A stretch of 64,000 nucleotides of DNA, taken from Eledone cirrhosa. Lineage: Eukaryota. The notes under the pieces are model-generated. The model did not search any database, was not told the DNA's origin, and saw only the letters and a program-made list of their open reading frames with translations. Shown piece by piece: positions 1,794 to 50,425 of the stretch. Positions within the stretch are counted from its first letter, which is position 1, and every line of letters begins with the position of its first letter. The stretch spans positions 348,936,001 through 349,000,000 of the forward strand of contig OZ024743.1 of assembly GCA_964016885.1 (NCBI GenBank), read 5' to 3'. The position numbers and the translations under genes were made by a program.

Positions 1794-2010
1794 GATTGCT
1801 ATGGTTGACGGAGGCTCGGCTCTGTAAGTTATTGTAAATTTTGAACGCTATAACAATTGTAAATTGTTTAAAACTTAGACCAACTTGTAGACAAAAACAC
1901 CCTCCTCCTCGTGAGAGGGGTCTTTCTGTCCGTTATTTGGCCCTTCGGAGTTAAATAACTGCTTATTGGGGTTTTGTACCCAATATTTATTTTAAACAAA
2001 AAAAAACAAC

Positions 2011-4009
2011 ATGGCTACGAAAAAGAATTTGCATAGGTCACTCCCACTCATTCCGTCTTCTTCTTCCTCAATCATCACTACAGCAGAGAGAAGATTGTCT
2101 CTCTCCCTCCCTTCTTTAAATGTGTCTCTCTCCCTCCCTTCTCTTTCGCAAGCGACGAAAGAAAAGAAAAGTCTCGTGCAAAGCGTGCAAGGTTTCTCTA
2201 CGACGACGACGACAGCGACGAAACAGGTGTGCGGGAAATACGAAAACCCAGTTCATTCGTCTGACGTCAGGAATAATAGCAGTAGCAGCCGTAATAACAA
2301 CAGCAACAGTGACAATGAAAACAACAGTAGCAGCCGCAACAGCATCACCAGCAGCATAAACAACAACAGCATTAGCAGCAGCAACACCAACAACAACCAC
2401 AGCAACAGCGGCGGAGGCAGTAGTCGTAGTACCTGCAACAACAACAAAAGTAACAGCAGTTCTGACGACAACAACAACAACAGCAGCAAAGAAAAACCAA
2501 TCTCATTTGCAGGTATTGCGAAAAACTTGGAAACAATCCTCATAACAAATGAGGAATTAGAGGAAGCGGAGAAGATGGTGACAAAGAACGGACACCGAGC
2601 AATCTGCAAGGCAGCGGAAAATGTTTCGAAACCCAACAGCACTGTACGGTCACGTACCGTACAGTAAGTACAAAATCCCGTAGGATGGAAAGAGTCACAG
2701 AGGCGCAAATACAAAAAGCCTTGGGGTCTGTGTGGCAGTGGAAAAAAACATCACCCGAGGCAAAAAATATGCCACCGTAGTCGTACTTTTTGCCACACCC
2801 CAGGAGGCAAAGGCCCAATCCGTAGTCACCCTAAGGAGCGAGGAAATGGTGTTGGTGCCCTCCTACTGCGGGCAAAAAATTGTGAGGGTCAAACTGACCC
2901 ATGTCCCCTCCGGAATGGCCCCTTCTTGGCTGGCCGCGTCTCTCCTCGTCGGAATCGAGGACAAAACAACTGTACTGCAAGTACAGAAAAAAGTAAGAGA
3001 AGATTGGGTCGGCACCTCCATTGAGATGCTAATCCAAACCAACCAGGAGTGCATCGAAGCTACCCCGGATGTGATAGACTTCGATAACGGCACTCAACTG
3101 CCCATAAGTGTTGAGGGAAAACGCCCGAAATGCTTTCGCTGTGGATCGAAGACTCACCTCAGGGCCTTCTGCAACGAGAAGACCCTGAGAAAGGAGAAAA
3201 CCCCCCTCCTTCCGAAACCGGCTCCACGGCTACCAGCAACAGGACAAGCGGCAACCAGGAACGATAGGTCCGTGGCACCCATACCCACGCCACGGAAATC
3301 AAAAACAGCAGCAGCAGTGGAAATATTAACAGCAATAACAGCAATACCAAATGCAGCTGCAACAGAGACTCCAGTGCAAACATCACCAACAACAACAAGT
3401 GAAAGAGTGGAGCTGGTACCCCTCCCCGACCTCACAGAATCAGACATGGAATGTGAGGTGGGAGAGTGATGGCAAAAGGTCGTAAGAAGGCACAAACGCA
3501 GAAGCAGGGCATCGTCGCCTTTGAAAAGGGAGGAAAGAAATGAGAAAAGGGTAAAGTCTACTGCAAAGAGACTCACAGCAGCAACACCACCAACACCATC
3601 AACACCCACACTAGCACCACCATCAGCACCGGCGTAAACCCCACCGCCAACAACACCTTCAACACCACCACCACAAGCACCAACATCGCAAACACAACAA
3701 CAAAACACACACACCCAGCAACAGCGACAAGAAAATAGCAGAACCACAACCCACCCCCAGAAAAACAAATGCACGGCAATAAATACACACAACAAGAAAC
3801 TAATGACTTACATAATTGAACACACAGACATTTCACAACACGACTACATAATACCAGCACCAATCAAAACGCCAACTAATATAAGACTGCTAAAAATAGC
3901 ACAGAATCAATACACAAACATTAAAACGAAATTCCCCAACGCAGTTGGTGATTTCAGGGACCTAGGAGGAACTATCAATCGAAGAGTATATTCAGACATA
4001 AGAGGGTAA
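2011..4009 (+). pseudogene. Tx1 ORF1 (gag-like nucleic-acid-binding protein), interrupted
   Basis: ORF pieces 2011-2667, 2732-3469, 3803-4009; Asn/Ser-rich N-terminus; CX2CX4HX4C knuckle CFRCGSKTHLRAFC. Confidence 0.8.
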
Positions 4010-7000
4010 GCTGGTGGTGCTGGACGTGACCAGCGGAGACGGGAAAGCTTTCAGGCTAGTGGCCGTCTATGCCCCGACAGGAGCAGGGCGGCCTGATTTC
4101 TCCCGGCGTCTGGAGACCTTTCTTGGAACATCCCGCTCTTTAGTGTTAGTGGGCGACTGGAACGGGATCTTAGATGCACGCTGCGACTGTGTGGGATTAG
4201 CGGATAGGGGTGGAGGGTGCAAGAGCCTCACCAACCTGCTCAGGCGTTTTGAACTGTCTGACAGGTACCGATTGGATTTCCCGAATGTGCCAATGTGGAC
4301 TTGGACAAATCGCATCGGGTCATCCAGATCACATCTAGATAGAGTATTTTGTAGGGAAGTAGATAGGTCTAGCATAGGCTGTCCACAATTCAAGATAGTC
4401 AGCTACACGGACCACAAATTCATGATCTGTGTGCTTGACTTAGATAGGCTTCATAGACGAGGACCCGGCTACTGGAAGCTAAACGCGTGCTTACCAGCGC
4501 GCAAGGCCTACAGAGGCCGGATTAGCGAACTAGTTAAGCGGGTGTTGACGGGGACCATCGTCAACAACAAGTGGTGGTTTGCTCTGAAAAGAGCGATTAG
4601 AATAGAATCCATTAGGTTTAGTAAGGCTTTAGCAATAGAGAAAAATAGAGCAGAGGGAGAACTAGTTAGAAAATTAGACGAGGCGCTTAGCAAAGGCATT
4701 GCGACCGACGTGCTTGCGGCGAAATTGGCCCTTGACCAATTCTTCAATGCAAAGCACGAAGGCTGCGTTGTCAGAGCAAGGGTGCGTGCTCTCAGACACG
4801 AGGGGACGAAAGCCGTTCAATGGGCCCGAGTGGCGAAGGCGCGTCGTGGCAACAAAGCCACGATCCGGTCTTTGGTGGACCCTGATGGGCGCATTCTACT
4901 CGATCCCGGGCAAAAGTGTGAAGCTTTTCAGCGACACTTCGCTCAGCTGTTCGGGGGCAGCGGTGGGCCGGGTCGAGGGATGGACTTTAGTGTCTACCTC
5001 GGCGGACTGCCGCGGCTCTCGGCCACTGAGGCGAGGTGTTGCGAAAAGCCGATAACAACCGCTGAAGTACGGGAGGCAATGACTGGCTGCACAAGGGGTA
5101 AATCGCCTGGTCTGGATGGTCTGCCCTATGAACTTTACGTACAGATGCCAGACTTGTTCGGAGGCCTCTTGGCGGACGTCTACTGCAACTGGCAATAGAA
5201 CGGGAGAATTCCCAGTTCTGTGAGCCGAGGAGCGGTGGCACTGCTGAGAAAGGATCCCAACAAGGGGGATAACATAGATAATTTCCAGCTCATAACTCTG
5301 CTAAACACAGAGTTCAATATTTTGGCCAAGGTGCTAGCAAAGAGGTTGGCGCTTGTCGTTGGTGGTATGGTGGGAGAGGCGCAGACATGCGCCATTCCCG
5401 ACAGATCCATCCACGACAACCTCCACCTCATGCGATACATCGTAGAGAGGGTAGGTAAGGAACCTGGCACGGGTGGGTCCTTGATCAATTTAGATCAGTC
5501 GAAAGCTTTCGATAGGGTCGACCATCGTTACCTAGCGGCAATCCTGAGGGCGGCTGGCTTTGGGCCCGTCTTCAGAGGCTGGATCGCTGCCATGCACAGC
5601 GACATCTGATCTGTGGTGAGAGTGAACGGTCACCTGTCGGAACCGTTCAACATCATGCGCTCGGCCCGCCAAGGATGTCCCCTCTCGTCCCTTGTGTACT
5701 TATTGACTCTCGAGCCATTACTGCACACTAGGATGCGGAAGATCCGTGTCAGCATATGCCGACGATGTCACCGTAGTGGTGTCGAACGCCAAACACATCG
5801 AGGCGATCGGCACTACACTAAGAGAATACGAAGCGGTGACAGGAGCAAGAATCAACCAGGAAAAGTCAGTGGGCCTGCAGCTCGGCACCTGGAGAGGCAG
5901 GTCCATGCCGTCCAACAAAATCTTCGGACGCTGGACGGACGGACCGATAAATTGCTAGGGGTCTGGTTCGGTCCGGACCTCCAGACGGACAAAACTTGGA
6001 CGAGGTGACGAGCAGGGTCGCTTCTCCCACCCAGAAATGGGCGGAGAGGAAGCTATCCCTGAAAGGTCGAGCGGATGTGGCTAACGCGTACATCGCGTCT
6101 GTAATCTGCTACCGCCTGACCGTCGTACCTTGTCCTAAGCCTCGCCTGACTGCGCTGGAGCATTTGCTCTTTCGCTTTTTGTGGAAGGGACGCGCTCCGA
6201 TGATCAGGCGGTCCATCTGTTGTCAACACCCGCTACGTGGAGGGCTGGGCATGTCGTGGCTGATGATGCGCAGGCACGCGCTCAGGCTACGACATCTCCA
6301 CCTCTTCCTCGACGGTGATCAGGTGTGGTCGCCGTTTGCTAGACACGTATTGCCCCAGCTCGTTTCCTTGACGAAGCTGCAGTCCTGGGTCAAGCGAAGA
6401 CCGAGAGGGGGCGCCTGGAGACTGGAATGTCTTCAGGCGCTCACAGCCCTCGACCAATCGGGCAATGTGATCGGTGGAAACTCCACCTCGGCGTTCTATA
6501 GAGGATTAGTGGAGGGGAAGAGCGACGACGTACTTGGGGAAACTCTAGGCGTCGACGAAAATCAACTAGCCAATCTCTTCGGAAGAACTTTCGGGCCAGG
6601 GCCTATGGACAATATCCAGAAATTTCTGGTCTGGCAGTGCTACCGAGGAGCCTTGCCAGTTCGGGATAAACTCTACAGGCATGGAGGTGCCGTCAGCTGG
6701 GCATGTCCGAGATGCGCGCAGGGCGACGAAACCGTCCTGCACGCACACGTCCAGTGTCCGAAAATTTCTGACTTGTGGGTTTATGTCGAACACCTGCTGT
6801 CGCGTTTAGGACGGATCCGGCTATCATCTGACCCCATCGTGAGGATTGCCCCGCCCTCCTTCTTTAGCCAGGAAGGGCAGGCAGTTTTTATCTGTCTGGT
6901 GGCCATGGCGAAAGAGATAGTATGGTGGACACGTTTGAAAGGGCTGAAGACGAGCACTTACCTCTTCGGTGATGCTTTGATTGACTTTTTCAAATTTCAT

Positions 7001-7120
7001 TTGAAAAGGAAAATCAGAGTAGAGAGGGAAGTGCTCTCTTCCCAGCATTTTGCTGAAAGATGGGTGAGAGAAGCAAGAATGGCCCGACTGAATGGACCTA
7101 CTCTGAGTATATATCTGTAA
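4002..7120 (+). pseudogene. Tx1 ORF2 (APE endonuclease + reverse transcriptase + CCHC), N-terminally deleted, with stops and frameshifts
   Basis: VYAP, GDWN, TDHK, YWKLN, SPGLDG, LDQSKAFDRV, QGCPLS, YADD motifs; in-frame stops ending the ORFs at 5198 and 5609. Confidence 0.92.
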
Positions 7121-7407
7121 ATTAAAGGTGGAAAACTGGGAGAGGGCTCTTGCCTTGGTGGTCAGGGTTATTGTGGCCTTTTACTCTGGGCTTTCTCCAC
7201 AAATGTCCCTCCGAAGTCTCCCCCCTATTGGGGAATTTTTCATTGTTATTTTTTGTTACATCCTCTGTTTTTGTTTTTTTACACGCAGAAATGCCCATTT
7301 GTACCGTCCTGTATTGTCCTGCACTGTCCTTAATGTCTACTTTATGTAAACCCTTGTGGTTAATAAAGAAATCATTATTACTATTATTATTATTATTATT
7401 ATTATTT

Positions 7408-7696: not shown

Positions 7697-7751
<55 letters not shown>

Positions 7752-7755
<4 letters not shown>

Positions 7756-8542
7756 TAGATTGAGTTAGAAACTCAAAATAGTATTTTACAATTAAATAGC
7801 TCAAGGCAGGGAGTCTTTCCGAGCCGTGTAATACAATTGAATATATGAGAGGGATGACCACCGATACAAGTACACATGTGTTCGAATTGCAAATGACCAA
7901 GTTAACTAGGTTGAAAAAATACTAATTTAAACAATATGGTTGCCTGTTTCGATTTAAAGTAATAAATCAATAAAAATAACAAACCTATATCGGGCAACTG
8001 CTTTTGATACCCGGACAGATCTAAAATCTGTTCCGCAAGAATTATTAAGTGAAAGTCACCATTCCTGTGCCCTTCAGCGGGTATCCAGGAAATTTGTACC
8101 TTTAACTTTAAAAAATCTAAGAAGACTGAATTATGTGTTGATATAAAATCACATGTTTCAGCGCCTAGCGCCTCTCATATTTATGCCGCTAAAAATAGCA
8201 TCCGGTTTTGTGAGACTAAAGTTGGCTCAACGTATGGAGCCTAGAATATCATAGATTGAGTTAGAAACTTAAAATAGTCTTTTACAATGAAATAGCTCAA
8301 GGAAGGGAATCTTTCTCATCCGTGTAATACAATTGAATATATGAGAGGGATGAACACCGATGCAAGTATATATGTGTTCGAATTGGAAATGACAAAGTTA
8401 ACTAGGTTGATTTATTACTTTAAATCGAGAGAGGCAAACCATATTGTTTTAAATTAGTATTTTTTCAACCTAGCTAACTTGGTCATTTCCAGAACACATG
8501 TATACTTGTATCGGTGTTCATCCCTCTCATATATTCAATTGT
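7752..8542 (-). mobile_element. Candidate retrozyme family R1, locus 1: ~1.3 tandem 496-bp monomers plus an inverted segment (8407-8542)
   Basis: ATCATAGATTGAGTTAGAAAC recurs at 7752 and 8248; 8407-8542 is the reverse complement of ~7830-7970; contains a hammerhead; homologous to 25165-26100. Confidence 0.75.
8006..8086 (-). ncRNA. Type I hammerhead ribozyme with two A>G core changes
   Basis: Minus strand: gatacccg CTGAAGG gca...tgc GGAA cagat tttag atctg TC cgggtatc; stems I, II and III all pair. Confidence 0.8.
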
Positions 8543-8718
<176 letters not shown>

Positions 8719-11539: not shown

Positions 11540-11713
11540 ATTTGAAGACTAAAATCCAAAGAGGGCTCGATAAAGATAAATATATATCAAATATACAAGA
11601 ACCGTAGAGCAAATATTTATTAAAATAACAGATTAAAGTTTAAGCAAAGAATCGCTGCTTTCACCCTTAACGTGATCTTCTGAAACTAACAAAGTCAATC
11701 TGTAAACGCAGCT

Positions 11714-12214
11714 TCAAATTTAGCTAAACTACCTAGCCGTAGGAACACGTGCAACCCGGTAGTTAGTACTAACTGTAATTGTAGGAATCGGGCTGATTGC
11801 CCCCTATCCGGGAAATGCGTCTCTAGTAACATTGTCTACAAATGTAAAGTTGTAACACCCACGTCCCATAAGGCCTACATAGGGTTAACCGCCAATAGTT
11901 TTAAGCAGCGTCTTTACATGCACACCCATTCTTTTCGTTACCCCCTAAGAAGGAATATGACGTCACTTTCAGCTTATATCTGGAGTCTAAAAGACAACCA
12001 CACCCAATATAAGTTACACTGGGAGATCCTAGCTAGGGCTAGATCGTATAACGGAAATAAAAGACCATGTGCCCTCTGCGCCGCTGAGGCCCTGGAAATA
12101 CTCTACGCCACAGACCACATCTTAAACAGAAAATCTGAGGCAATTTCGGCTTGTAAACATAAATTGCACAAAACTTTCCTGTATTACAGCCCCACGTTAT
12201 ACCCTAACGGATAG
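11714..12214 (+). pseudogene. PLE C-terminal GIY-YIG endonuclease fragment (frame open, RT missing)
   Basis: CNCRNRADCPLSGKC..IVYKC..AYIGLT..FKQR..H..SF..CALC..E..LNRKSE..CKH. Confidence 0.88.
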
Positions 12215-13121
12215 TACGATCTATACGTGGTTATTTTACGTCTTGATGCGGGAGCTAAGTATATGTTTTGTTTATTCCTTTACTTATTTGCATAGGTAAG
12301 TATATACTACCCGTAAGTTTTGTGAAGGTACGTATACCTTCTCGTACGTATATTTGATTGTTATGGCGTATCATTTTATATATTCTGGTACATAGGGTTT
12401 GGCTATGTGTATACGGGAGTTTTTGCGTCTGTGTGATTATGTAGGTTCGTACGTATGGTGGGTGTGTGTATATGTGTACTTCTCGTTTTAGTTGACTTAC
12501 GTCTCCGAACATTCGTGTATTTATATGTAGGTATGTGTGTGCGCTTGTTATATACGTATTTATTTATTTATATACGTTTATATAATTATTTATTTATTTG
12601 TATACACGCATACACACACATATTTATATGTGCGTGGTTTTGTATACCTATGGTAAGGTTTTGCGTATGCTTGTGTATGTACGTTTTTGTTTGCGTGTAT
12701 GCATTTATTTATTTCTATTACTTCTGTATTGTATTTATTTAATCGTTCTTAACTCTGTAGTGGAGATTCATTTGGTCTCCTAGTTAGAATTTTAGTCTAC
12801 GACTTCTGCTATACCATTTACGTGGTTTTGTCTTTGCGTGCTATTGTTCTCCACGCTTTACATATGACGTATTATCTTCGTTTTTTCGTTGATTGCCAGA
12901 GAACGTCTCTATGCACCACCTAAGAGAACATTAGTCTACGACCTCTTTTATACCATAAACGTGGTTCTGTCTTTGCGCGTAAATGTTTTTCACCGCTCCT
13001 ATTAATGACGTATTGTTCGTTTTTTCCCGTTCTTCGCCAGCGAACGTTTCCACGAACCAAAGTATCGTCTTCCTGTCTTCCTCCGGTTGCAACGTTTTTT
13101 GAAATATCCAGTTCTGCGTTT

Positions 13122-13197
13122 ACAGATTGACTTTGTTAGTTTCAGAAGATCCCATTAAGGGTGAAAGATGCGATTATTTGCTTAAACTTTAATCTGT
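13122..13197 (+). ncRNA. Atypical hammerhead-like motif (CAGAAGA core) in the PLE pLTR; inverted copy at 11628-11703
   Basis: acagattg..agttt CAGAAGA t ccc attaa ggg t GAAA g..tgc TT aaact..taatctgt. Confidence 0.45.
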
Positions 13198-13589
13198 TAT
13201 TTTAATATATATATATAAATATATATACATATATAAATTAGCGAGAATCGTATTTCGGCTTTGGAAATTAGCGAAAAACAACTTCCGAGATGTGTGGCAA
13301 GCGCTCAATAAATTCTAACGAACCAGAGCTACAACATACGTTAAAAGATCAAACACACTGAGACGATGGTTAAACCATTATCCGCACAGCCATAGAAACG
13401 ACCAAGTAATTCGGGTCAAACAAATAAAAAAAATATGATTTATATATATATAATTTTGTATAAGATGTCGACCAACATGACTGTGTATGCAACACTTCGA
13501 TCAGTAAACGATGATGCAACTAGATCAAACACTCAACGACGTGTGTCTCTTTCCAAATGAGATTTGGGGCCCCATTAAGGATTATACAT

Positions 13590-24721: not shown

Positions 24722-24911
24722 GTTATATTTGGGGAGGGTCATATTGTTGTAATAATATTGCCAGAATTACAATACAACACGAGGAACACAATAGCACCAC
24801 TGACGATGTTGCAGATGTGCAACGAGAGAACTTTGTTAGACTATATATATGTGTTTATATCTATATTATATCTGTATTTGTGACCGTTGGTCAGTCAATG
24901 GTAAACATTGT

Positions 24912-25015
24912 GTACCCTGGCCAATGTACTTTCAGAATATATATGGTTATGGTGGTCTATCTCTAATACCATAGGAGGAGTTCGTGAACAAATAAACAAA
25001 AAGACAGGAACTACA

Positions 25016-25030
<15 letters not shown>
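24912..25030 (-). repeat. Dispersed repeat (possible non-autonomous Helitron 5' end), homologous to 42850-42960
   Basis: Strong similarity between the two loci; the minus strand starts TATATATAAAG followed by a TGTTT-rich tract. Confidence 0.55.
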
Positions 25031-25094
<64 letters not shown>

Positions 25095-25320
25095 TACCTG
25101 TGCATCCAGTACTCATATTGGTACCACCAACCATCAGTAGTTCACTGAATCAGAGACAATACGTCTCCATGCGTTGAGCTAATTTTTAGTCCCATAAAAC
25201 CGACTGCTATATTTAGCGGCACGGATATGAGATGAATTAGCCGCTGTGACACACGTGCGTTCAACAACACATGTTTATCAGTCTTCTTAAGTATTTTGAA
25301 GTGGAAGGTACCAATTTACG

Positions 25321-25417
25321 GATACCTGCAGAACAGTACAGGAATAGTAACTTTCACTTAATTGTTGCGAAACAAATTTAAAATTTATCAAACAGATTTT
25401 AAATTTGTCCAGGTATC
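25321..25417 (+). ncRNA. Type I hammerhead, degenerate core (CAGAACA)
   Basis: gatacctg CAGAACA gta..tgc GAAA caaattt..aaatttg TC caggtatc. Confidence 0.68.
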
Positions 25418-25833
25418 ACGGCCATTGCCAATATAGGTTTATTATTTTTATTGATTTATTATTTTAAATCGAGACAGGCAAACCATGTTATGTTAAATTA
25501 GTATTTTTTCAGCCTAGCTAACTTGGTCATTTGCAATCCGAACACTTCTATAATTGTATAGATGTTCACCCCTCCTATATTCATTTGTATTACACGGCTC
25601 AGAAATATTCCCTTCTTTGAGCTATTTAATTGTAAAAGACTATTTTGAGTTTATAACTCAATATTTGATATTCACGGCTCCATGCGTTGAGCTGATTTTT
25701 AATGCCATAAAACCGACTGCTATTTTTAGCGGCACGGATATGTGACGAGTTAGGCGCTGGGACTCACGTGCGTTCAACAACACATGTTTCTCAGTCTTCT
25801 TAAGTATTTTGAAGTGGAAGGTACCAATTTCTT

Positions 25834-25930
25834 GATACCTGCAGAAGAGCATAGGAATAGTAACTTTCACTTAATTGTTGCGAAACAAATTTAAAATTTG
25901 TCAAACAGGTTTAAAATGTGTCCAGGTATC
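25834..25930 (+). ncRNA. Type I hammerhead with CAGAAGA core and duplicated stem III
   Basis: gatacctg CAGAAGA gca..tgc GAAA caaatttaaaatttg TC aaacaggtttaaaatgtg TC caggtatc. Confidence 0.72.
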
Positions 25931-26221
25931 ACGGCCATTGCCAATATAGGTTTGTTATTTTATTGATTTATTATTTTAAATCGAGACAGGCAAACCATGT
26001 TATGTTATATTATTATTTTTTCAACCTAGCTAACTTGGTCATTTGCAATCCGAACATTTCTATAATTGTACAGATGTTCATCCCTCCTATATTCATTTGT
26101 ATATATATATATATATATACTAGCAGAGTTTCATCAAAATCAACGAACATTATTATAACTATATTTAGTTCAATAATTCTTTGAATGCAAAAGTCTATGC
26201 TCTCAAATTTCTGAATATATA

Positions 26222-26640
26222 TATATATTGTTATACTTTGGAAGTGTCATGTTTCCAATAAAAACGCACACGCACCTGTTGTGCTTCACTTCAATTTATT
26301 ATAAATTCCCAGTTGGTTGATTGGTTGGTCCGTTAAACGGAAGGTTGTTTGTCCTGTCCTATACCATCTACGAGATGGTGTAGGATGGAACAAAGGAGAG
26401 ACACACAAAGTAAAGACCTAGTCACCGAGGAGGTCACAGTATGTATGACGAAAGAGTTTTGATAATATATAAACAACCTTCCGATTATCGAATCAACCAA
26501 TCAGAAATTTATAATAAATTAAAGTGAAAACCAAAAGTTTTTATTGGCAGAATGAGCCTCCCAAAAGTATAACAATATATGTTTGAACACCCGTTTTCAG
26601 ATAAGAAACCTCGCAAAATAAATTCAAAAACGAACTATAC
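26222..26640 (+). mobile_element. Solo fold-back PLE pLTR related to 41870-42190, with a decayed hammerhead at ~26421-26463
   Basis: 26365-26635 aligns to 41882-42188; 26222-26352 is an inverted copy of ~26470-26580. Confidence 0.8.
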
Positions 26641-27579
26641 AAACACGCGCGCGCGCGTGTGTTGGGGAGGGGGGTGCGTTTGTGTGTATGTGGTGGTGGT
26701 GGTTGAATACATGTTTACATTGCTTTAATTTGTAACGTTTTAAGATACAGGTCAATGAATTCTAAGCTTTTATTTCCAGATTAAAGATAATCAAGAGTTT
26801 ATAATTATTGAAAGTTGTATTATTATCATGGGCTGATTAGAAATACTACCACAATTAAATCAGAACATGTGTGTGGTCTTACTGTCTAGTTGTTTGTCTC
26901 TGTTTCTATATCCATCTCTGCTTTTCTCCCACCCTCACCCTCTCTATATATGTATATATCTGGCTCTGACCCTGTCTCTTTCTTCATGACCCCATATAAC
27001 AAACACTATACATAGGCATAGTCATATGCAAATGCACACACATAATTTCACATCCATAAACATTAAATGGGTTTCTGTCAAATTTGACGATGTGCATTAT
27101 AGTTCATCGGTTAATAAACTACTTCTTCATTGAATTACCGTTTAACTAACTGAGAGACGTTCGATGTCACGGAAATTTTGAGGTGGGTTCAATTTCAGAT
27201 ACCGTGCATCAGACGTGCTTCCAGTTTCCGGCCACACGAGTTCGTTTACAGTAATGCAAATGATTTAAGTGTTTGCTAACAAAACATGCAGACGAAACGA
27301 ATTTGAAAACTCTGAGTATATACAAACACGTATTCATACCTACCTACCTAAGTATCTACCTATCTACATACATGCATCTACATTCTCACTTACCATAACA
27401 TCCATAACTGCACAAAATGGCACGCAAGCAGGGATGTATACATATCTACCTAGAAGATGTTGTCTAAATTCCAATGAGTGAATGTGTTTTGTATATGTGA
27501 GAAACCGACCATCACTCTATAGGTAAACATAAAAAAAATGTGAAACCAGAACATACATACATACACGCAGACGTATACG

Positions 27580-30237: not shown

Positions 30238-33200
30238 TGTTTCTTTATTAGCCACAGGGGCACACAAGAAGGGGACAATTACAAACGGGGGAGTTTACAT
30301 ACAATAAAAACGCGTAAAATATTATCACAAATGCAAATTAAAAGTGAATCGATTTTCCCCAATAGGGGGAGACAGTTCATATGGGCAGCACATACCACCG
30401 TAAAAAATGTGCAACCCTTATCTCCAGGAGTACGAAGAGTTTGTAGCCCTTTCCTCTCTTCCTATTTTTCCTCAACCTACAGGCGGATATAAAGAGAAGG
30501 CCCATTCACTCGAGCCATTCTCGCCACTTTCACCCACCTTTCATAAAACTTGCTGGGGTAGAGCACCTCTCTCTCCATCCTGATTCTTCTTCCAAAGTAG
30601 TATTTGAAAAAGAGAATCAGTTGTTGGCCGGAGAAAAAGGTGTCTGCCCTCAGTCCTTTTAACTTCGTCCACCATACAACCTCTTTCGCCATAGCTATCA
30701 CACAAAGGAAAACCGTTTCTCCTTCGTTTTTGAAGGAGGGTGGCGGTTTGATCATGCCATTAGACTCGGTGGTCAACCGGATTGGTACCACCCGCGACGA
30801 TAGTCGTTCTACATAGCCTCACAGGTCGGTAACGCCCGGGCAGTGTATGAATGCGTGCGCGACGGTTTCTTCGTCTCGCACGCATCTCGGACAGATCTTT
30901 TTCGAAGGGTCCCAGCCCGGGCGCCCTTGTCTGTAGAGCTTGTCTCGAACTGGTAGAGCTCCTCGGTAGCACTGCCAGGCCAGGGACTTATGGAAGTTGT
31001 CCATCGGTCTCGGGCGGAAGGTCCTACCGAACAGACTGACCACTTCGTCTTCCTCCACGCCTAGATTTTCTCCGAGCGCGACTTCGCACTTGCTGCGGAT
31101 CAACCCTCTATAGACTGACGAAGTGGAATCTCCACTGATTGCCGGGTCCGCCTGCCAGAGGGCTGTGAGAGCCTGAGCACATTTGATGTTCCAGTCGCCC
31201 ATTTCTCTCGGTCTTTGCTTGACCCAGGAATGCAGCTCGGTCAGCGAGATGAGTCGTGGGAAGGCTCGCCTCACGAACGAAGCACACACCGGTTGTCCGG
31301 TGAGGAATACGTAGAGATACCGCAGCCTGAGCGCGTGTTTGTGCATCGTCAGCCACGGCATCCCCAGCCCTCCGTTGGAAGGGTGTTGGTAGCAGATGGA
31401 TCTTCTCACCAAAGGAGCCCGCTCCCTCCGATTGGAAGAGAGCGCGCTCCATTTTGGTGAGCGTTTTGGCTGGACAAGGCACGACGGTCAAGCGGTAATA
31501 GATGACGGACGCTATAAAAGTGTTCGCCACCTCCGCTCGACCTCAGCCCTCTTCTGGGTGAGTGCAAACACCTTGGCCGTCACCTCGTTCCAGCTCTTCT
31601 CCACCTGGAGCAAATCAGAGCAAACCAGACCCCCGAGCAGCTTCACCGGTCCTTCCGTCCAGCGTCCGACGACGCCATCGGAAGGCTCGGTCTGTCTCTC
31701 CACGATCCGAGTTGCAAACCGATGGACTTGTCCCGGTTCAGCTTAGCTCCTGTGAACCTTTCGTATTCCTTCAGTAAGATGCCGACTTCCTCGATTTGCG
31801 AGGTGCTCGACACCAATACTGACACGTTGTCGGTGCAGGCCGACGCCGCTTTCCGCAGTCCCTGTTCTAGAGGGATGCCCTGCAATAGCTCCAACTTCCG
31901 CAGTACTGGCTCGAAAGTCAGTACGTGCAGAAGAGAGGAGAGAGGGCATCCCAGTCGGTGGATCGCGTGATATGGAACGGCTCCGAGAGGTAGCCGTGCA
32001 CCTTGACCCTTGAGCAGATGTTGCTTTTGTGCATTGCAGCAATCCAGCCCCTGAACACAGGTCCGAAGCCTGCCGCCTCGAGCACCGCATCCAGGTACCG
32101 ATGGTCAACCGCATCAAAAGCCTTAGACTGTTCCAAGTTGATCAGCGCCCCACCGAAACCGGGTTTACACGCTACCCTCTCTACGATGTATCGCATAAGG
32201 TTGAGGGTGTCGTGTGTGGACCTGGTCGGGATTGCTCATGTCTGCGCTTCTCCCACCAGGTTTTCGACGACAAGCGCCACCCTCTTTGCCAACACCTTGG
32301 CCAAAATCTGTAACTCTGTGTTTAACAGAGTTATGGACCGGAATTTGCCTATGTCATCCCCCTTATACTCGTCCTTCCTGACTAGTGTGACTACGCCCCT
32401 GGTCACAGAACTAGGAATTCTCCCGTTCTGCTGCCAGTTGCAGTTGATCGCTTCCAGGAGACCGGAGAACAATCCGGCATTGCTACGTAAAATTCGTAGG
32501 GTAGACCGTCCAGACCTGGAGATTTGCGTTTGCCGCATCGGTTCAGCGCGTCTCCTATCTCAGCGGCTGAAATCCGCCTTACGCAGAACTTCGCCTCGCT
32601 GTCCGAGTGTCGCGGTAGGCCGTCGAGGTATGGACCAAAATCCATAGCCCTTCCCAGCGCGCCGCCCTGCCCGAACAGTTGAGCAAAGTGCCGCTGAAAA
32701 GCCATGCACATCTGCTTCGGCTCACGTATAACGCGTCTGTCTTAGTCCTTCAAATACCGAATCGTGGACTTGTTGCCACTTTCCCCTCCTTCACCCGGGC
32801 CCAGCTAACAGCTTTGTCTCCCTCGTTACCCAGAGCACGTATTTTGCTTCTGACAACGCAGCCCTCATGCTTTGTGTCGAAGAACTGGTCCAAGGCCGTT
32901 CTCGTTGCTAGCACGCTGGCTATGTTGCCACTCCTAAGTGCCTTTTCTACTTTATCTACCAGTTCCTTCTAGGTCCTATTTCTATCTAACGCTAATTCTT
33001 TAGTAAAAACTAACGAGTCTAATCTAACTTCACTCTTGAGAGAGTACCACCATCTGTTGTTGAAAACGGCCCCTGTCAAGTGCTGCTTAACTAAAGTGCT
33101 AATCCGCTTACTGTAAGCGTTTTCGTCGGTAAGGACAAGTTTAGCTTCCAGTAAGCGGGTCCTTGTCTATGGGTTCTATCAAGGTTGACCACTCCGGTCA

Positions 33201-35725
33201 CCAACTTGTGATCCAAATAGTCAACCATGAACATTCGTGGACAGCTTAATGTGTCCCTATCCTTGTTTCTAACTAGGAACATATCTAGGTACGACCTAGA
33301 TGTTGCGCTGCGATTAGTCCACAACCACAGTGGCACAGTCGGAAAATCTAGTCGATATCTATCGGCCAGATCAAATCGGGCGATTAACCGTTTGAGGCTG
33401 TTACACACCCCTCTATCGGGACATGCCCCTACATAGTCCCATCGTGCATCCAGGATACCATTCCAGTCCCCCACTAAAACCAAGGAGCAGGACGTTCACA
33501 GAAAAGTCTCTAGGCGCTGAAAGAAGTCTGGTCGCGGTGTCCCATATGGGGCATACGCTGCCACCAGCCTGAAGGCTCCAACTTCGCTACTGCCGACGTC
33601 TAGATCCACCAGTCGACCCTCCGGGTCCAGGTGTACCTTCCGTGTTTCGAGGCCCAGGTGTTTTCGCAGCAGAACGACCACCCTGTCCCTACTGACAGAG
33701 AGATGCATAGATCTCAAAGTCGTCGAAGATGGGGGCCAATTGGTGCTCGCTGCTGACCCTGGACACACAAATAGCTATCACATCCATTATGTGCGACCTG
33801 AGGACATTTTAGAGTTTGCCTTGATTCTAGGACATCCCCAGGCCGCGCACATTTAACGATCCAACTCTTATACCTGTCCTTCTCCTGGAGACCAGGCTGC
33901 ACACTTTCCATGGGGTGTCAGAAGGGTTGTTTGGTGGGTTGGTGGTTTGGGATGTGATGGGGACATCAGTGTGTGGTGGGATGGGGTGTTTGGTGGGGGA
34001 GGGGTATATGGGGTGGTGGTGGGGAAACATTTCAAAAGACGCGATTGATGGGTCTAGTACAGGGGTTCCCCACGTCCTCGGGGAAGTTCTGCTTGAGCAT
34101 TGCGTAGGTGTCCCTTGGGACCGTAATCATTTTTAAATGCGGTTTAGTCGCCGCGTTGGTGAACATTTTCCCTTCGGTTTCCACCGACGGTCTTTGTCCA
34201 TTGTTTGCATAACTGTTTTGTTGTTTGCGTTGATGTATGTATACTGTTTTTGTTGTGTTGTGTTTGTTTTTGTTTGTTGTTATTGTGTGTGTTTGCGTTT
34301 TGTAGTATTTGTTATATTTTCGGGGGGGGGGGTTATTTGTGATGTTTGTTCTGTTTGTGCTGGTGGCTGTGTGTTTGTTGTATTTTTGTTGATGTGGTGG
34401 CTTCTTTTCTTTCTTTTTACCGGTTGAAAGGGTACTCCCTCGTCTTCACTAGGTGACGTTGATAAGGGGTCCTCGTCCGTGTTGTTGGGGAGGGTTATAT
34501 TTTGGGGTTTTGTTGTGGTTGCGGGTGCTTTTGTATTTGTTTTAGGTGGGGAAGGGTTGGGTGGAACGGTGTCTTGTGTTGTTATTTTACTGTGTTGTTG
34601 TGGTTGTTGTGGCGGTGGTGGTGGCGGTGGGGGTGGTGTTTGTTTTGTTGTTGTGTGTGGGGTGGGCAGGAGCGTCTTTCTTTTGCGGGGGGGGAGGGGC
34701 ATTTAAAAGGGGACAGGAAGCCCTCAGGCGATCATTTCTTGAACAGTGGTAGCATGAAGGCCGCCTGCCCTCGACAGAAATGTTTATGAAGGCAAATCCA
34801 TCCAGAGACACCCGCTGCGGTATTCTTGCTATCCGTTCTGGTCTCATTTGGACCAGTATTTCAAGGCTATTGCCGCCGAATACGCCCACGGTGGATTCGC
34901 CTATCGAGAGGATTGTGTCCTCATCGTCTAAGAATCCCGTTAGCACCCACCAAAGGCTTGCATTTGGCCTGATGCCCGAGATTCTTATCCTTTGAGTTCT
35001 TTTCCCCAAATATGGGGGGAAAAGGTGTATAATTTGGATACAATTGCCGATACAGAGTATTTCCGTGCCGCTAATTGATCTTTCATTAGCACAGATATGC
35101 TTCCATGCAGTTTCCCTTTCTCTATAAAAGCGATATATTTCCAGGCACTACTTAGGACCAGCTTAATTTCGCTTTGGGACAATTGAGCCGGTTTCCTAGT
35201 TGCGTTGGAAATTGTCCTAAGAATTAAAGTCCTCAGGACTGTATCTTTTCTAACTTCTTCGGGGGATGAAATTGTGAATTCCCGACCTTCCCCAAAAGTT
35301 ACACAATGTGTTGCCTCCTTCAGCATCTCCCTGGCAGTCGAGAGGTCCAATGCCTTCTAAATATGTGTCTGTCGGACGGCCTGTGCGAAAGAGACTCTAG
35401 TCGTGGGTCAGCTCTCTTTCGTCTTGTTGTTCTTGTTGTCACTGATGTTGATATTTTTCGTATTTTCCTTGGTGTTGGTGTTGTTGTAGTCTTTGATGCT
35501 GGTATTATTGGTGTTGTCTTTATTTTTTCCTTTGTTGTTGTTGTCATTGTTGTTTTTATCATCATTATTGGTGGTGTTGTTGTTAATTTTGTTGTCATTG
35601 TACTGTTTGGTGTCATTTGTGTCGTTTGTATTTGAATTTGTTTTTACCATTTGATTTCGTCTTTCCATCTCCATAGTATCTATGTAGAAGAGAAGGGATG
35701 AAGACGATGTTGACTGCGAGTATAG
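30238..35725 (-). mobile_element. Tx1/L1-clade LINE, divergent family (copy D), near full length, decayed
   Basis: ORF1 remnants with CYHC..RLRASC knuckle; ORF2 RVGSLNVRG, GDWN, SPGLDG, KAFD, CPRC..H..C; AATAAAG 3' end near 30243. Confidence 0.92.
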
Positions 35726-36454: not shown

Positions 36455-39400
36455 ATGATATTAAATAGATGGTAACTATATTTATAAAACCATATTTATT
36501 TTATTATATATATTTCAAGGGCAACCAAGACAACATTGGTGCGCTTTCATCAGATAAAATACAAACTAGGTTTTATAAATAGAGACGTACCCATGAAAAT
36601 TCTACCTTATCGGTTGGAAATTCACTTGATAATGGAAACATATAAGGGATTATTCAAACTTATGTGTGAATATGCAAATGAATGTGTAAATAATTGAAAA
36701 AAAAAAACAACCGTTTATTTAAATGACACTGGAGAAAGATAGGGAAGAAAGAGAGAGATAGAAAAGATATTAATATTATGAGATAGATAGAGAGAACAAA
36801 TTTACAAGAGGATGAACATAACTCATGTAACGTAAATATGAGGGAATAAATTTTAAGTTTATATCTACTAATGGTACATATATTTACTATTATTTAGTTG
36901 TTAGAATTCTTTTTAATATAATATTTACTGTAGATAGAAAAATAAATAGATATATATAGAAAAATAAATGTATATAAAAATTAGATGGAAAAATATATGG
37001 AAAAATAAATAGAGCGAAAAATAGATAAATAGAAGAATAAATAAATAGAAAATAGATAGATAGAAAAATAAGTAGAAAATGAATAGAAAAATAAATAGAA
37101 AAATAAAAGCATAAATAAATAAATAGATAAGTAGATAAATAGGTAGATATATGGATATATGGGTATATCGTTTTATAGATAATTGTTTTAATGAGTTATG
37201 AGCGATATTGGTTTATATTTAATGTAAGTAATTATGTTAACTGAGTTAATAAGAATATTTATATATTTTAAATTGGGAAGATACGGAAAAAACTCAAGTT
37301 TGTTTATTTATTAGTTAGTATGAAACCATTTTGACAAAATAAGTTTCAACGTTAAAGATATAAATGTTGAAAGATATAGTTAGCCTGAATTAGTTAGTGG
37401 TTATAAATCTAATAAAAGATATTTAAAAAATGTTTATTAAAAATATTAAAAAATATTAAAAATTAGCAATTTTTAAAAAATAAGTAATGTTTAATATATA
37501 TGAAAGATTTAAGAAGTAAAAATTTTAAAATGAAAGATTTAAGAAGTAAAAATAAAAAATAAAAAATAAAAAATAAAGAATTAACAATCTTTAAAAATAT
37601 TAAAATTAAAGTTAATATTAAAAATTAAAATTTAAAAATTTAGGATCATATATGTATATAATTTAAGAAATTTTAAGAAGTGAAATTATAGCAAAATAAT
37701 ATATTAAAACAGAGTGGATAAGATTGTTATGTAAATAAGTAGAACTATTATAAGTGTAATTATAATTTATAATTTATATATAGTTCTAAACGTTGAATTT
37801 AGGCGATGTTTACAAGAGCTAAATAAATTAATTCGTACATTAATAGAGTTCTTACATTTAAGCATGAAGAAAATTTCCTCAACACACAATTTGCACAATC
37901 TAGATAAAGATGTGTATTGTAGGCAGGTGTTTCGAAATGATTTACCAAGTTAAAGAATAGTCCATATTTTTGGATTTTAAGTTTCATATCAGGTCGCATA
38001 GAGAAGTTGAAGATTGTTTTATCAAGTTTATTGAACGAGCATGTGTGATTGATCCAACGAGTTTTAAAGTCTGTAGAAGTTGAACCTACATAGTTAAATA
38101 TATTATCACTGGTTTTGACTGTGCATTTATAGACCACGTCCTTATCTGAGCACTTATTTTTTAAAGGACATTTTGATTAAATTTTAAAGTTACATTTAGC
38201 GGAGCTGATGTTATTCGCAACGGTACTATTATGTTGGATATTGCTAGAGATATTACTGCTATTTTGGTTATGGTTTAAATTTCTATTATTGATTCTATTT
38301 ATATTTTGTGCTATGTTCATAGTAGTAGAGTAAGATAGTTTTATTGTATGTCTGTTGAAGATTGAGTGACATCTATGGGCTTTAGGAAAACATTTATCTA
38401 ATGTTTTAAAGAATAGCTTAGCTAAAGGTGTTTTAACGCTTAATGAAAATGGAGGTGAATACCAAATTATATTTCTAGTTCTATTTCTTCTGTTAGTTTT
38501 AGAGTTTAAGTTAGGGGTTTTTTTTGTAATTATAATTAATAGTAGGGTTATTTGCCTTATCACTGTTGTCGATGTATTTAATCTTATTTATATAGCCTGC
38601 TCTATTTAAAGCTTCATTATAAAATTCTGCCTTATCGTCAAAAATGTTTTTATTAGCGGAGATTGGTGAAATACGTTGTTGGATAGAATTGACAATAGTG
38701 TTCTTGATAGATCTAGGATAATTAGTGTTAACACCTACATAGTTTAGATTCTCATTAATTTTATGGAATGGATAGTAGAGCCCTGTGTTAAAGTTTAATG
38801 TTACGTCTAAAAAGTTAACAATTTTATAGTTATTCTCTATTTCTAATTTAAGATTGTAGCTATTGAAAAATCGTATTATTGATTTTCTTTTTCTATTAAT
38901 TTCACAATTACTATTATTTTCAGTTAAAAGCAGCATATCATCACGATATAAACCACTGGTCATCTCTGGTATTTTTCTATGTAGTGTATTATTAATAAAT
39001 AGCCCCACAAGATCCGTTATTTGCGCCGAGTGCGATGACACCATGGTGATATCAAAATTATTTTTCTATCAGCTCTAGTCCAGAGATGATTGTTGAACTC
39101 AATTAAAGTTTTCCGTGCGGTTTAAATGATATGCATTTCTTCGCTAGATACATCTGTATGTATAGATGCATAGATAAGGTCGTTATTAAGTAAATTAGGA
39201 GTAATGGAGGAGTAGTAATTTCCAATATCCAATTGAATGAATTTTTTGTTGTTGAAATTTTATGTTATTGAACCAATCTATAACATCATTAGTATCGTTC
39301 CATAGTTTTAGGTAAGATATTTCTTTAAGATGCAGTATGATTCTATCTAATATATGTTTACTAACTATGCCTAAGTCTGATTTAAATGGTGCTATGAGTC

Positions 39401-39833
39401 TAACTCATTTCAAAGTTTCTTTTGTCGTCTTTCGGGTTAATGTTCTGTCTTCTAGGTATAAATGATTCGGTCCTATATTCAATGCCTAATTTATGAATTA
39501 TTTCAGAAGCTTCTCTATTTACAATTTCCATGTGTGTTGTTGTTGATGTGTGCTGTTGTTGATGTGTGTTGTTGTTGTCTCCGTTTGTGTTATTATTGTT
39601 GTGTGTGTTGTTATTGTTGTTTGTGTCTGCGTGTCTGTTGTTGTTGTTTCTGGGTATATTGTTATTGTTGTTGATGTTGGTGTGTGTGTTGTTGTTATTG
39701 TTGTTTGTATCTGTGTGTCTGTTGTTGTTGGGATGTGTGTTGTATATGTGTGTGCGTATATTGTTGCTTTTGTTTTTGTTTTTGTTTTTGTTTTTGAGGC
39801 TCCAGCGTAGTTTTGTAAATGATTTTTCTATTT
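36453..39833 (-). mobile_element. Penelope-like element (RT + C-terminal GIY-YIG; Nematis-like by motif recall), decayed, with a long AT-rich 3' region
   Basis: IEKSFTKLRW, RLIAPFKSDLG, GLYRDD, VNFLDVTL, IIWYSPPFS, KLSYS, CPL..C..VVYKC..YVGST..FKTR..H. Confidence 0.9.
36479..36581 (-). ncRNA. Type I hammerhead ribozyme, intact core, extended stem I
   Basis: Minus strand: tatttataaaacc..tattttat CTGATGA aagcgcaccaa..ttggttgccctt GAAA tatata TA ataaaata..ggttttataaata. Confidence 0.88.
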
Positions 39834-41735
39834 CTGCCGGCGTTGTATGGGCTTCGAAAAGACCATAAAACGGGCAGTGACCCTGTCACGGGACAACCAA
39901 CACGGCCAGTCTGTGGAGCTAACATTGCTAGTAACTACAGACTGTCCTACTTCCTCTCCCTGATCATACGCCCCATCATTGAAATGTCCCCAGATGTATG
40001 TGACAGCACGGAGGACCTCCTCAGCAGAATCGGCGTGAGTAACCGATCTAGGGACCTAACAAACTGCATAATAGGTAGTATGGATGTTGTGTCCCTGTAT
40101 CCATCCATTGACGTGGATTTTGCTGTGGAGAAATGCGTAGAAATGATCAGTGAGAGCAATGTTGAGTTCCGTGGGATTGATACCAGTGAGCTGGGACTCC
40201 TACTTAAACTTCCCTATAGTAATAATTACCTAGACACATATGACCTTAGCAACCTGTGCCCTACAAGACCAGCAAGAAGCAGACCACATACCATTACCTC
40301 AATGGCCAAGAAAACCCACACAGATAGATGGAACGGGTGGACCAGAGCCATACGGACACCCGAAAACCACGATGAACTTAAGAAAATGATTGCACATGCG
40401 GTAGGGGCCAGCATAAAACTAACCCTTAAGGAACATATGTTCAAATTTAATGGAAAAACATATGCCCAAGAGGAAGGAGCAGCCATTGGTGTTAGCATTG
40501 CAGGCGACATAGCTAACTTATTCACGGTATGGTGGGACAGTAGACTTAAACTTAAACTTAAAGAACAATTAGAAGCCTCCTTAACCCTGATAATGTACTC
40601 CCGCTACGTTAATGATATAAACATCGTAGTTAAGACACCCCCTCTAGAGAACAGTCAGGAACTAGAGGAAAACACAATGGAAAGCATCCAGCAAATAGCA
40701 AACTCCATCCACCAGAGCATTAAAGTTACTATAGACTACCCAAGTAAACACCCCAACCATCGATTACCTGTACTAGACACAGAGCTCTGGTTAGATACCA
40801 TTAACAACAAAAAACAAATCCTCCATTCCCATTATGCCAAACCCATGACTTCCAAACATCTGATCCACCGAAACTCGGCCGTTTCGGACCATACCAAAAT
40901 CAACATACTGATTGCGGATTTGGTACGGGTGATGAGAAATGTGTCCCGCATGTGCAACCCCGAAGAACTAGAGAGACACATACAACACTTCATCCACCGT
41001 ATGTAGTTCTCTGGCTACAACCAGAGAGATAAAATCAGAGTGTATAGAGGAGCCAGAACCAAATGGGAAAAAAATGGTAAATAATGACATACATGGGACC
41101 TGCCCCTTGTATAGGAGCAAATTTTGGAATAGAATAAAAAGAACTAGGAACAAGGCTAATAGAATAAACTCATGGTATGATAGCAATAAATACCAGAGTG
41201 TAATGTTCATCGATACAACCCCTAGAGGGGAATTAGCTTACAAATTTAGAAGGGCCCTAAACAAACATATACTCAATATTAAGATAGTAGAAAGACCAGG
41301 TACCTCCGTAAAACACGTATTAGCAAGACATACCCTTTTCAAAGACCCCCAAGTACAGATAAGAAATGTATAACCTGTAAAATAAGCCCCCATATTAACT
41401 GCAAAACTAGAAATGTAGTGTATAGCATAAGATTTACTGAAGGACAATGTAGAGACAAAAATATAGTGTACATAGGTGAGACAGCTCGTAGTGTAGGAGA
41501 ACGGATAAATGAACACTGGCGAGACCTTCAAGATAGTAAAGAATCATCTGTACTCTACCAACATGCTAAAATAGAACACAAGGTTAAATTAAAGAACATA
41601 GAAATAAAAATAGAATCTACACACAGAAAAGACGCAATGTTTAGACAAATTACAGAGGCAATAAACATAAAAGAATTACAACCAAAATTAAATAGAAAAT
41701 ATGAGTGGAACAGCAACATCACAACTTACAATTAA
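39834..41735 (+). pseudogene. PLE RT/GIY-YIG polyprotein, interrupted; catalytic YVDD reads YVND
   Basis: ORFs 39819-41006, 41074-41373, 41418-41735. Confidence 0.85.
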
Positions 41736-41936
41736 GTACAAAATGAAAACACACACACACATAGAACAAACAACCAACCAGTAACATGTAAATAAACAAA
41801 TAAATAAATGAACATAAACACACACAGACACCCGGATGTGGCGCATGCGCAGACTGAGCACACAACACACACACAGATACAAAATGGCGTAGGACAGAAC
41901 AAAGGAGAGACACAGAAACAAAGAAAGGAATCCCCA

Positions 41937-41979
41937 GTCACTGAAGAGGTCACAGAGTGTGTGACGAAAGAACTATGAC
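41937..41979 (+). ncRNA. Minimal type I hammerhead, intact core
   Basis: gtca CTGAAGA g gtcac agagtgt gtgac GAAA gaac TA tgac. Confidence 0.85.
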
Positions 41980-42429
41980 AATATATAAACAACTATCTGG
42001 TTGTGGAACCAACCAACCAGAAATTTATAAATTTATAAATTTATTATAAATTTATTATAATAAATTGAAGTGAAAGCAACTGGTTCGTGTGTTTCTTATT
42101 GGCAACATGACCCTCCCAAAGTATAACAATATCGGTTTCAACACACGATTTCAGATAAAGAATCTTGCTAAACAAATTCAGAAACGAAATATATATATAT
42201 ATATATATATATATATCAATGAGAACAGAAGGCCTAGATTCTAATATATTATTTAGACTATGAGGCAAGACAATCGATGACGGGACCAGGTGTAATAGTC
42301 ATAAAAAATTTAGTTCAGTAATTCTTACAGGGTCATAGCAAAGATAAACAAAGGATTGCTAATCGTAATGTCTAGATCAACCCATTAATCAAACCATCCA
42401 ACATAGACTGTACGTATATATATATGTGT

Positions 42430-42965
<536 letters not shown>

Positions 42966-43080
42966 TATACATGTGTGGTGTGTATGTGTGTATGAATATA
43001 TATGTTACATTATTCAATACTTGGCGTAGTAGAGTATAGTTATACTATCGTGGTCTTGACTTTTTATGAAACATATACAT

Positions 43081-45630: not shown

Positions 45631-45754
45631 TTATATTTATATATACACTGGTATCTCTGTGTGTGTATATATATATATATAATATATATATATATGATAT
45701 TCAAAACATGAGCGTCCCAACACAAATGAAAATAATAATGGTCGATCCCTATAA

Positions 45755-45945
45755 ATAATTGTTTCTACTTTTGGCACAAGGCCAGCAATTAACTAGTGCA
45801 TTACTGGTACTTTATTTTATCGACCCCGTAAGGATGAAAGACAAAGTTAACCTCAGCGGGATTTGAACTCAGATCATAAAGGGCCGTAACTCTTTGCTGC
45901 AAAGCATGACGTCCGATCCTCTGCCGATACTGCCAATCCACCAAA
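45755..45945 (-). mobile_element. SINE S1, full length
   Basis: Reverse complement of S1; a further tail fragment lies at ~45395-45450. Confidence 0.9.
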
Positions 45946-50258: not shown

Positions 50259-50282
50259 ACATATATATATATATATATATAT

Positions 50283-50425
50283 ATTGTAATAATGTAAAAT
50301 CCGAAGAGGGCTCGAGAAGGATAATATATATATAAAAATATATAAAACCATAAGCCAAATATTGACTGAAATAACAGATTAAAGTTTAAGCAAAGAATCG
50401 CTACTTTCACCCTTAACGGGATCTT
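50283..50425 (-). mobile_element. pLTR stub of the PLE family at 11540-13206
   Basis: Aligns to 11540-11680 (AAATAACAGATTAAAGTTTAAGCAAAGAATCGCT..CACCCTTAACG). Confidence 0.8.

Follow-up and report, generated by a model that had tools for sequence, protein, structure and literature searches.

A 1.8-unit tandem of hammerhead-like repeats with a duplicated stem III in Eledone cirrhosa is likely a decayed non-LTR retrozyme

Introduction

Animal non-LTR retrozymes have been proposed to be non-autonomous derivatives of Penelope-like elements (PLEs) (10.64898/2026.07.22.740005). PLE insertions are recognised by partial tandems, a 5'-truncated copy in inverted orientation, a tail at one end only and (TA)n targets (10.1101/2021.04.23.441226); two internal sites at which reverse transcription starts account for the tail (PMC11167929). 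In vitro, PLE insertion did not depend on hammerhead cleavage, and reads ending at the cleavage site were absent (PMC11167929), so that mobility would still be open to a source whose ribozyme is weak. Template jumping has been described for the R2 reverse transcriptase, which jumps onto template ends (PMC4117753). The retrozyme of Acropora millepora occurs in 225- and 245-nt forms that differ by a 20-nt indel and are both apparently expressed (PMC7229834), and a large helix III occurs in fungal and protist PLE hammerheads (PMC4209133). In our literature search, outside which most subscription papers fell, we found no report of a cephalopod retrozyme, of a natural U4A core or of a duplicated stem III.

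Here we describe a family of tandem repeats, R1, in a stretch of 64,000 nt from Eledone cirrhosa (contig OZ024743.1, positions 348,936,001 to 349,000,000), referred to as the window. R1 occupies two loci. Locus 2 carries the duplication that is the main subject of this work, and locus 1 holds a shorter relative.

Results

Repeat comparison placed the locus 2 array at 25161-26102 (+). It consists of 1.8 tandem units with a period of 513 nt and is short of a full dimer: unit 1 (25161-25673) is complete at 513 nt, and unit 2 (25674-26102) stops after 429 nt, without the tail region. Since 28 of the 425 bases aligned between the units are mismatched, in addition to a 1-nt gap (6.6% divergence), an assembly artefact was ruled out. 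A hairpin opens the unit (25675-25694, +), directly after the second of two 3'-end positions described below, and is also found at locus 1. The 3' end of the array abuts a (TA)n tract (26100-26119) with TAT microhomology. The 5' flank (25020-25160) is made of another (TA)n tract (25020-25087) followed by ~73 nt (25088-25160), for which a search within the window found no homologue. Further upstream, at 24790-25020 (+), a degenerate minimal-hammerhead-like motif was seen by eye near 24800 and was not returned by our scans; the repeat holding it is partly shared with 42851-43003 and ends in (TA)n.

The interpretation of this array as a tandem hammerhead repeat of the retrozyme type, put forward in an earlier note, agreed with its organisation. 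As in retrozymes, the units are arranged head to tail, measure a few hundred nucleotides and carry one type I hammerhead-like motif each; they are non-coding, with a GC content of 34-36%, below 50%. Neither an open reading frame of at least 150 aa nor a coding remnant was detected in the monomer (best tblastn E value 0.21 against 39 PLE-like proteins). When folded as a circle, the monomer was strongly self-paired, a property of non-LTR retrozymes, with z-scores of -3.3 and -4.1 at locus 2, partly owing to the duplication, and -1.9 at locus 1 (40 shuffles each). ARAGORN returned 0 tRNA genes and hence no tRNA-derived SINE head. The R1 pattern had 0 matches in bacterial and archaeal genomes, as expected, and a bacterial promoter scan, which is not suited to this host, stayed at chance level (6 vs 5.3).

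Hammerhead-like motifs were identified in both units by a descriptor scan and folding. Their cores, at 25329 and 25842, lie 513 nt apart, as the earlier note had read them. Motif 1 (25321-25417, +) is of type I and predicted to be inactive; it is made of an 8-bp stem I, a core at 25329-25335, stem II at 25336-25368, GAAA at 25369-25372 and C17 at 25409. Its core, CAGAACA, carries U4A (25330) and G8C (25334). Motif 2 (25834-25930, +), also of type I, is predicted to be weak or inactive; its core at 25842-25848, CAGAAGA, carries U4A (25843), and C17 is at 25922. Each locus 2 unit has an 8-bp stem I, a seven-base core, a stem II closed by G10.1-C11.1, GAAA, a stem III and a GUC triplet, and the distal part of stem II is irregular. 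The locus 1 motif, with its core at 8077-8071 (-), carries A9G and A13G, C17 at 8014 and a 7-bp stem III without the duplication. A three-stem junction with an open stem I, G10.1-C11.1, A15.1-U16.1 and H17 was present, as expected for type I, and the invariant core C3 U4 G5 A6 N7 G8 A9 / G12 A13 A14 was canonical in 0 of the 3 motifs. On inspection, an alternative register with CUGCAGA as A6C core lacked U16.1 and was rejected.

Pairing in stems I and III was retained in 44 of 45 cells across the three motifs, against 11-47% in slid controls. In one pair of these stems, C-G is replaced by U-A between the loci; this covariation was not significant (174 of 500 shuffles reach it), an outcome to be expected with two lineages. 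The descriptor scan, allowing up to 2 core changes on both strands of the window, returned 6 matches, 3 of which are these motifs, and none in 2 shuffled single strands. Rfam gave no hammerhead at the gathering threshold over the window, and none was among the 12 matches at E<=10 in 24800-26400. Two related motifs with canonical CUGAUGA cores and a stem III of UA repeats lie elsewhere in the window, at 36553 (-) and 45503 (+), within an inverted repeat that ends in (TA)n; the former is ~1.2 kb downstream of broken PLE-like open reading frames (37800-39400, -).

The earlier note had taken the two motifs as a dimer able to excise one monomer. This did not survive analysis of the cores: with U4A in both and G8C in unit 1 as well, excision is predicted to fail, and the upstream cut in particular is predicted to fail because the unit 1 core combines the two changes. 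G8C eliminates cleavage of a PLE hammerhead (PMC11167929). Given these core mutations, release of a monomer from locus 2 is not expected today. Active retrozymes are defined by two consecutive units with complete motifs, and both cores deviate here; together with the lack of an invariant core, this led us to class the array as a decayed member rather than a working ribozyme pair.

It might be argued instead that the CAGA (U4A) core is tolerated, so that unit 2 self-cleaves at one site and a duplication-bearing subfamily spread via circular RNA. The template of both units already had U4A, the monomer folds well as a circle, and U4C is viable in a viroid, although U4A is absent from the main text of the same survey (PMC3088659). 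A scan allowing any base at position 4 returned 4 matches, against 0.07 per shuffled window (30 shuffles), with A4 in 2 of the 4, unit 2 and a motif at 13143. This second CAGAAGA motif is part of an unrelated PLE, where it occurs in the terminal repeat and in the inverted piece of that repeat; however, it scored at the threshold, and its folding did not exceed that of shuffles (z +0.5). In a full mutational scan, activity was low when a single base of the CUGA turn was changed (PMC9901934), unit 1 carries G8C, and 8 of 9 predicted Xenopus dimers failed to cleave (10.64898/2026.07.22.740005). We therefore regard an active variant as very unlikely, and the reading of the pair as decayed is kept below.

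Folding and a register test confirmed the ~20-nt duplication that the earlier note had described in both motifs. In each unit the segment from A13 to C17 is present twice in tandem, at 25370-25389 and 25390-25409 in unit 1 (25370-25409, +) and at 25883-25902 and 25903-25922 in unit 2 (25883-25922, +). A degenerate pattern of the duplication had 2 matches in the window and 0 in 100 shuffles, and an adjacent-tandem identity of 85% was reached by 0 of 300 shuffled monomers. The duplication had also been said to account roughly for the size difference from the 496-nt monomer of locus 1. It does so exactly once a 3-nt deletion in stem II is included (+20 and -3, giving +17), the remaining indels between the 513- and 496-nt monomers having a net effect of 0.

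As the doubled segment is a palindrome, its copies pair with each other. In unit 1 they form a single 15-bp stem III (-10.5 kcal/mol, z -6.0); in unit 2 the stem spans 17 positions with 2 mismatches (z -2.1). The first UC falls in the apical loop of this long stem. Selection for a long stem III was considered and rejected: when either 20-mer is doubled exactly, the product folds about equally well or better in 3 of 4 cases (-10.8 and -2.1 vs -10.5; -8.8 and -10.4 vs -6.3), and the long stem is no sign of selection because doubling a hairpin yields it automatically.

These folds bear on the proposal that the duplication provides two alternative UC cleavage sites and would release monomers of two lengths. 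Each 20-mer does end in a UC triplet (AUC or GUC), and in unit 2 two short hairpins are energetically near the long one. However, stem I pairs at 8 of 8 positions only after the second UC. After the first, 3 of 8 positions pair with the 5' strand of stem I and the closing position is a G-A mismatch, so that stem I cannot close; within the long stem, this first UC is confined to the apical loop. Neither fold gives hammerhead geometry at the first UC. Under strict constraints, the fold probability of the distal-site vs the two-hairpin arrangement was 1.7e-3 vs 8e-11 in unit 1 and 9e-3 vs 1.2e-3 in unit 2, a distal-site preference of ~seven orders of magnitude and of about sevenfold (~1.3 kcal/mol), respectively, with absolute probabilities that were low for all three motifs. 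Only one possible cleavage site is thus left of the two that had been suggested, and we consider a two-site module extremely improbable. The preferred reading is one long stem III with a single site.

The boundaries of the duplication were well defined. The best register was A13-C17 in 2 of 2 units, with 3 mismatches against at least 4 at 12 other shifts, and the 3' boundary coincided with the scissile bond (C17) in both. The chance of this coincidence, which was noticed post hoc, is 1 in 513 for a uniformly placed boundary and ~1 in 8 if duplications are tied to hairpins, 8 of which form locally in the locus 1 monomer. A duplication that ends exactly at the scissile bond hints at an RNA-level origin at a ribozyme-made end. 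By analogy with R2, a PLE enzyme could likewise jump, so that the final 20 nt of a cleaved monomer would be read twice.

A monomer HMM searched over the 64-kb window with nhmmer recovered only five R1 pieces at two loci, in addition to one self-complementary match (E 2.6). At locus 1, the main piece (7750-8410, -) contains 1.3 units of the 496-nt relative and ends in (TA)n with a tail, and an inverted 5'-truncated piece (8407-8544, +) meets (TA)n at the monomer position where locus 2 also has its 3' end. All 4 anchors gave a period of 496, and the pieces overlap by 4 nt at the inversion junction. Within 7750-8544, the main pieces share one substitution against the inverted piece, and the inverted piece shares another with the upstream piece; these conflicting substitutions could come from more than one RNA template or from conversion.

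Both locus 2 units have in common the breakpoints of the duplication and an A/G base that tells its two copies apart, as well as U4A and the 3-nt deletion. Because they are shared, the duplication, U4A and the deletion predate the step that made two units; on the compared sequences, then, the duplication existed before the second unit was made. Divergence within loci was 6.6% at locus 2 and 4.4, 5.0 and 8.5% at locus 1, against 16.6-18.2% between loci over the monomer and 11-14% in its 3' part. A tree, built from an alignment that included two short rows and from which one 20-mer per locus 2 unit had been removed, split the loci (support 100/99, internal length 0.12). The head-to-tail junction is identical at both loci and is therefore a feature of the family. 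The contrast in divergence and the shared junction are better explained by a distinct source lineage than by duplication of DNA in place, and the simplest reading of these alignments is that two insertions of similar age arose from two diverged source lineages.

A local event in a dead copy would explain the same array differently: slippage at the stem III palindrome, after which gene conversion or unequal exchange spread the duplication and U4A, with no subfamily involved. Palindromes are known slippage sites. The duplication is found at 1 of the 2 loci in the window, there was no significant signal of selection, and apparent decay marks (U4A and two stem II mismatches) are common to both units; homogenisation of one decayed copy also fits these shared changes. 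Against this, the within-locus divergences (4 comparisons, 4.4-8.5%) all point, at both loci, to younger splits than the between-locus ones (5 comparisons, 11-18%). No conversion tract between the units stood out (longest identical run 54, P=0.45), both array ends lie at family-typical positions, and 4 shared changes in stems I and III preserve pairing. Unequal exchange, moreover, is unable to yield 1.8 units from less than one. We judge the local event unlikely and retain the distinct source lineage. The statement that the duplication defines a subfamily that propagated is plausible, with one duplication-bearing locus of two in view. Two further comparisons of the loci gave no clear signal: the regional unevenness of the shared differences, a possible mark of selection acting on the source lineage, fell short of significance (p=0.08), and A-to-G changes showed no editing asymmetry (13 vs 12).

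The ends of the R1 pieces indicated how they may have been mobilised. All three element 3' ends are joined to (TA)n with a TAT overlap (n=3). Two of them, at locus 2 and in the inverted locus 1 piece, are at the position equivalent to 25590, a coincidence of ~1/26 by chance given 26 TAT sites; the third, at the 25671 equivalent, extends 81 nt beyond this point and falls 2-3 nt short of the locus 2 start position. These two recurrent positions delimit an 81-nt PLE-like tail (25591-25671, +) with a GGCUC...GAGCU hairpin at its start. A GGCUC...GAGC hairpin directly follows both end positions, with a modest internal likeness (11 of 500 shuffles were as good). The PLE signature was thus found in several parts: a partial tandem with an inverted 5'-truncated copy at locus 1, locus 2 having no inverted piece; a one-ended tail between two 3'-end positions, from n=3 and with a length of 81 nt rather than 30-40; and a (TA)n or AT-rich insertion target. 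Pieces ended at the cleavage site in 0 of 6 cases, which speaks against cleavage defining the insertions.

Two PLE families with open reading frame remnants in the window show the same two-ended architecture. R1 had no similarity to the PLE terminal repeats of the window (in 8 tail comparisons, at least 35 of 500 shuffles scored as high each time), and none of these repeats points to a partner PLE. A link between the R1 tail and the tail of a Hydra-like PLE was also considered and was unsupported by the tail comparison.

Several other elements were observed in the window. A broken PLE at 39819-42193 (+) retains a reverse transcriptase, a GIY-YIG remnant and a 3' terminal repeat ending in (TA)n; its reverse transcriptase (39819-41003) is 73% identical to an Octopus vulgaris protein, the next matches being at ~50%, and its terminal repeat holds a minimal hammerhead (core 41941) with an extra base after A9. 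A terminal-repeat fragment of this family, with an inverted copy, adjoins locus 2 at 26200-26660; it has a degenerate minimal hammerhead near 26429, and its two ends differ by a ~60-nt tail. A SINE-like repeat of ~190 nt, which we take to resemble the octopus OK SINE, is present at 45753-45943 and at least 8 other places. Several LINE-like copies with AP endonuclease and reverse transcriptase remnants occupy 1-7400, 30493-33621 and 58039-61099. A PLE fragment at 11540-13212 has an inverted terminal copy with a ~70-nt tail, (TA)n at both ends and a CxCX5C linker, as described for the endonuclease of Hydra clade PLEs (10.1101/2021.04.23.441226). The weak hammerhead-like motif with the CAGAAGA core at 13143 belongs to the terminal repeat of this fragment, and a third terminal piece lies at 50261-50425 (-). 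No homologues of its open reading frame at 11690-12211 were found among longer proteins.

Discussion

Collectively, the data presented indicate that this 1.8-unit, 513-nt non-coding tandem with hammerhead-like folds is likely a decayed non-LTR retrozyme, that is, a non-autonomous PLE, inserted by a borrowed PLE reverse transcriptase. Its duplication would give one long stem III with a single cleavage site, likely inactivated by core mutations. We see locus 2 as the apparent relic of an already described type of element and not as a novel ribozyme with two sites.

We propose the following order of events. The stem III and cleavage triplet, from A13 to C17, would have been doubled in a source copy, a placement in which we have moderate confidence, possibly by a reverse transcriptase jumping twice onto the ribozyme-made 3' end; a double jump is proposed because the duplication stops exactly at the scissile bond. 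The doubled palindrome is computed to refold into one long hairpin, so that the three-way junction would survive with one site. Copying at the level of the monomer, by rolling-circle or template-jump reverse transcription, may then have given both units the duplication, U4A and the 3-nt deletion. Judging by the ends, a PLE protein would have nicked TA-rich DNA and begun reverse transcription at one of two fixed internal sites. The units have since diverged by 6.6% and unit 1 has acquired G8C, and for this reason no monomer release is predicted today. A more far-reaching combination appears decidedly unlikely. In it, the duplication would be the fossil of in vivo jumps by a Penelope reverse transcriptase to RNA ends made by hammerhead cleavage, and the CAGA (U4A) core, found in two unrelated repeat families of the window, would be a functional natural hammerhead of cephalopod Penelope-type elements that spread as a subfamily with a long stem III.

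As a decayed retrozyme, locus 2 is a probable cephalopod addition to the group of non-LTR retrozymes and non-autonomous PLEs, and the R1 ends provide locus-level support for the proposed mobilisation of retrozymes by PLEs. A duplication ending at the scissile bond, if repeated in other copies or families, would be genomic evidence for cleaved ends as templates. An active U4A core, if true, would widen the hammerhead consensus, and descriptor searches would miss such families.

Comparison with described systems places R1 close to three of them. Like animal non-LTR retrozymes (PMC7229834; 10.64898/2026.07.22.740005), it is made of non-coding tandem units with one type I hammerhead each, a GC content below 50% and a self-paired monomer, and PLEs are present in the same genome. 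The monomer of 496-513 nt is above the 150-450 nt given in one source (PMC7229834) and inside the 51-972 nt of the other (10.64898/2026.07.22.740005). Unlike in those elements, the size change lies inside the ribozyme, where it doubles stem III, and 3 of 3 cores are non-canonical. With PLEs and their pseudo-LTRs (10.1101/2021.04.23.441226; PMC11167929; PMC4209133), R1 shares the partial tandem, the inverted 5'-truncated copy, the (TA)n junctions, a one-ended tail arising from two 3'-end positions and a hammerhead within the repeat. It differs from them in having no reverse transcriptase or GIY-YIG open reading frame, a tail of 81 nt instead of 30-40, a long stem III in place of the minimal form of animal PLEs, and no matching PLE terminal repeat in the window. 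Finally, the motifs agree with the type I hammerhead consensus (PMC3088659) in the order of stems, G10.1-C11.1, GAAA, A15.1-U16.1 and the GUC triplet, and depart from it by U4A in both units, G8C in unit 1, an irregular stem II, the absence of an Rfam match and a stem III of 15-17 bp built by tandem duplication.
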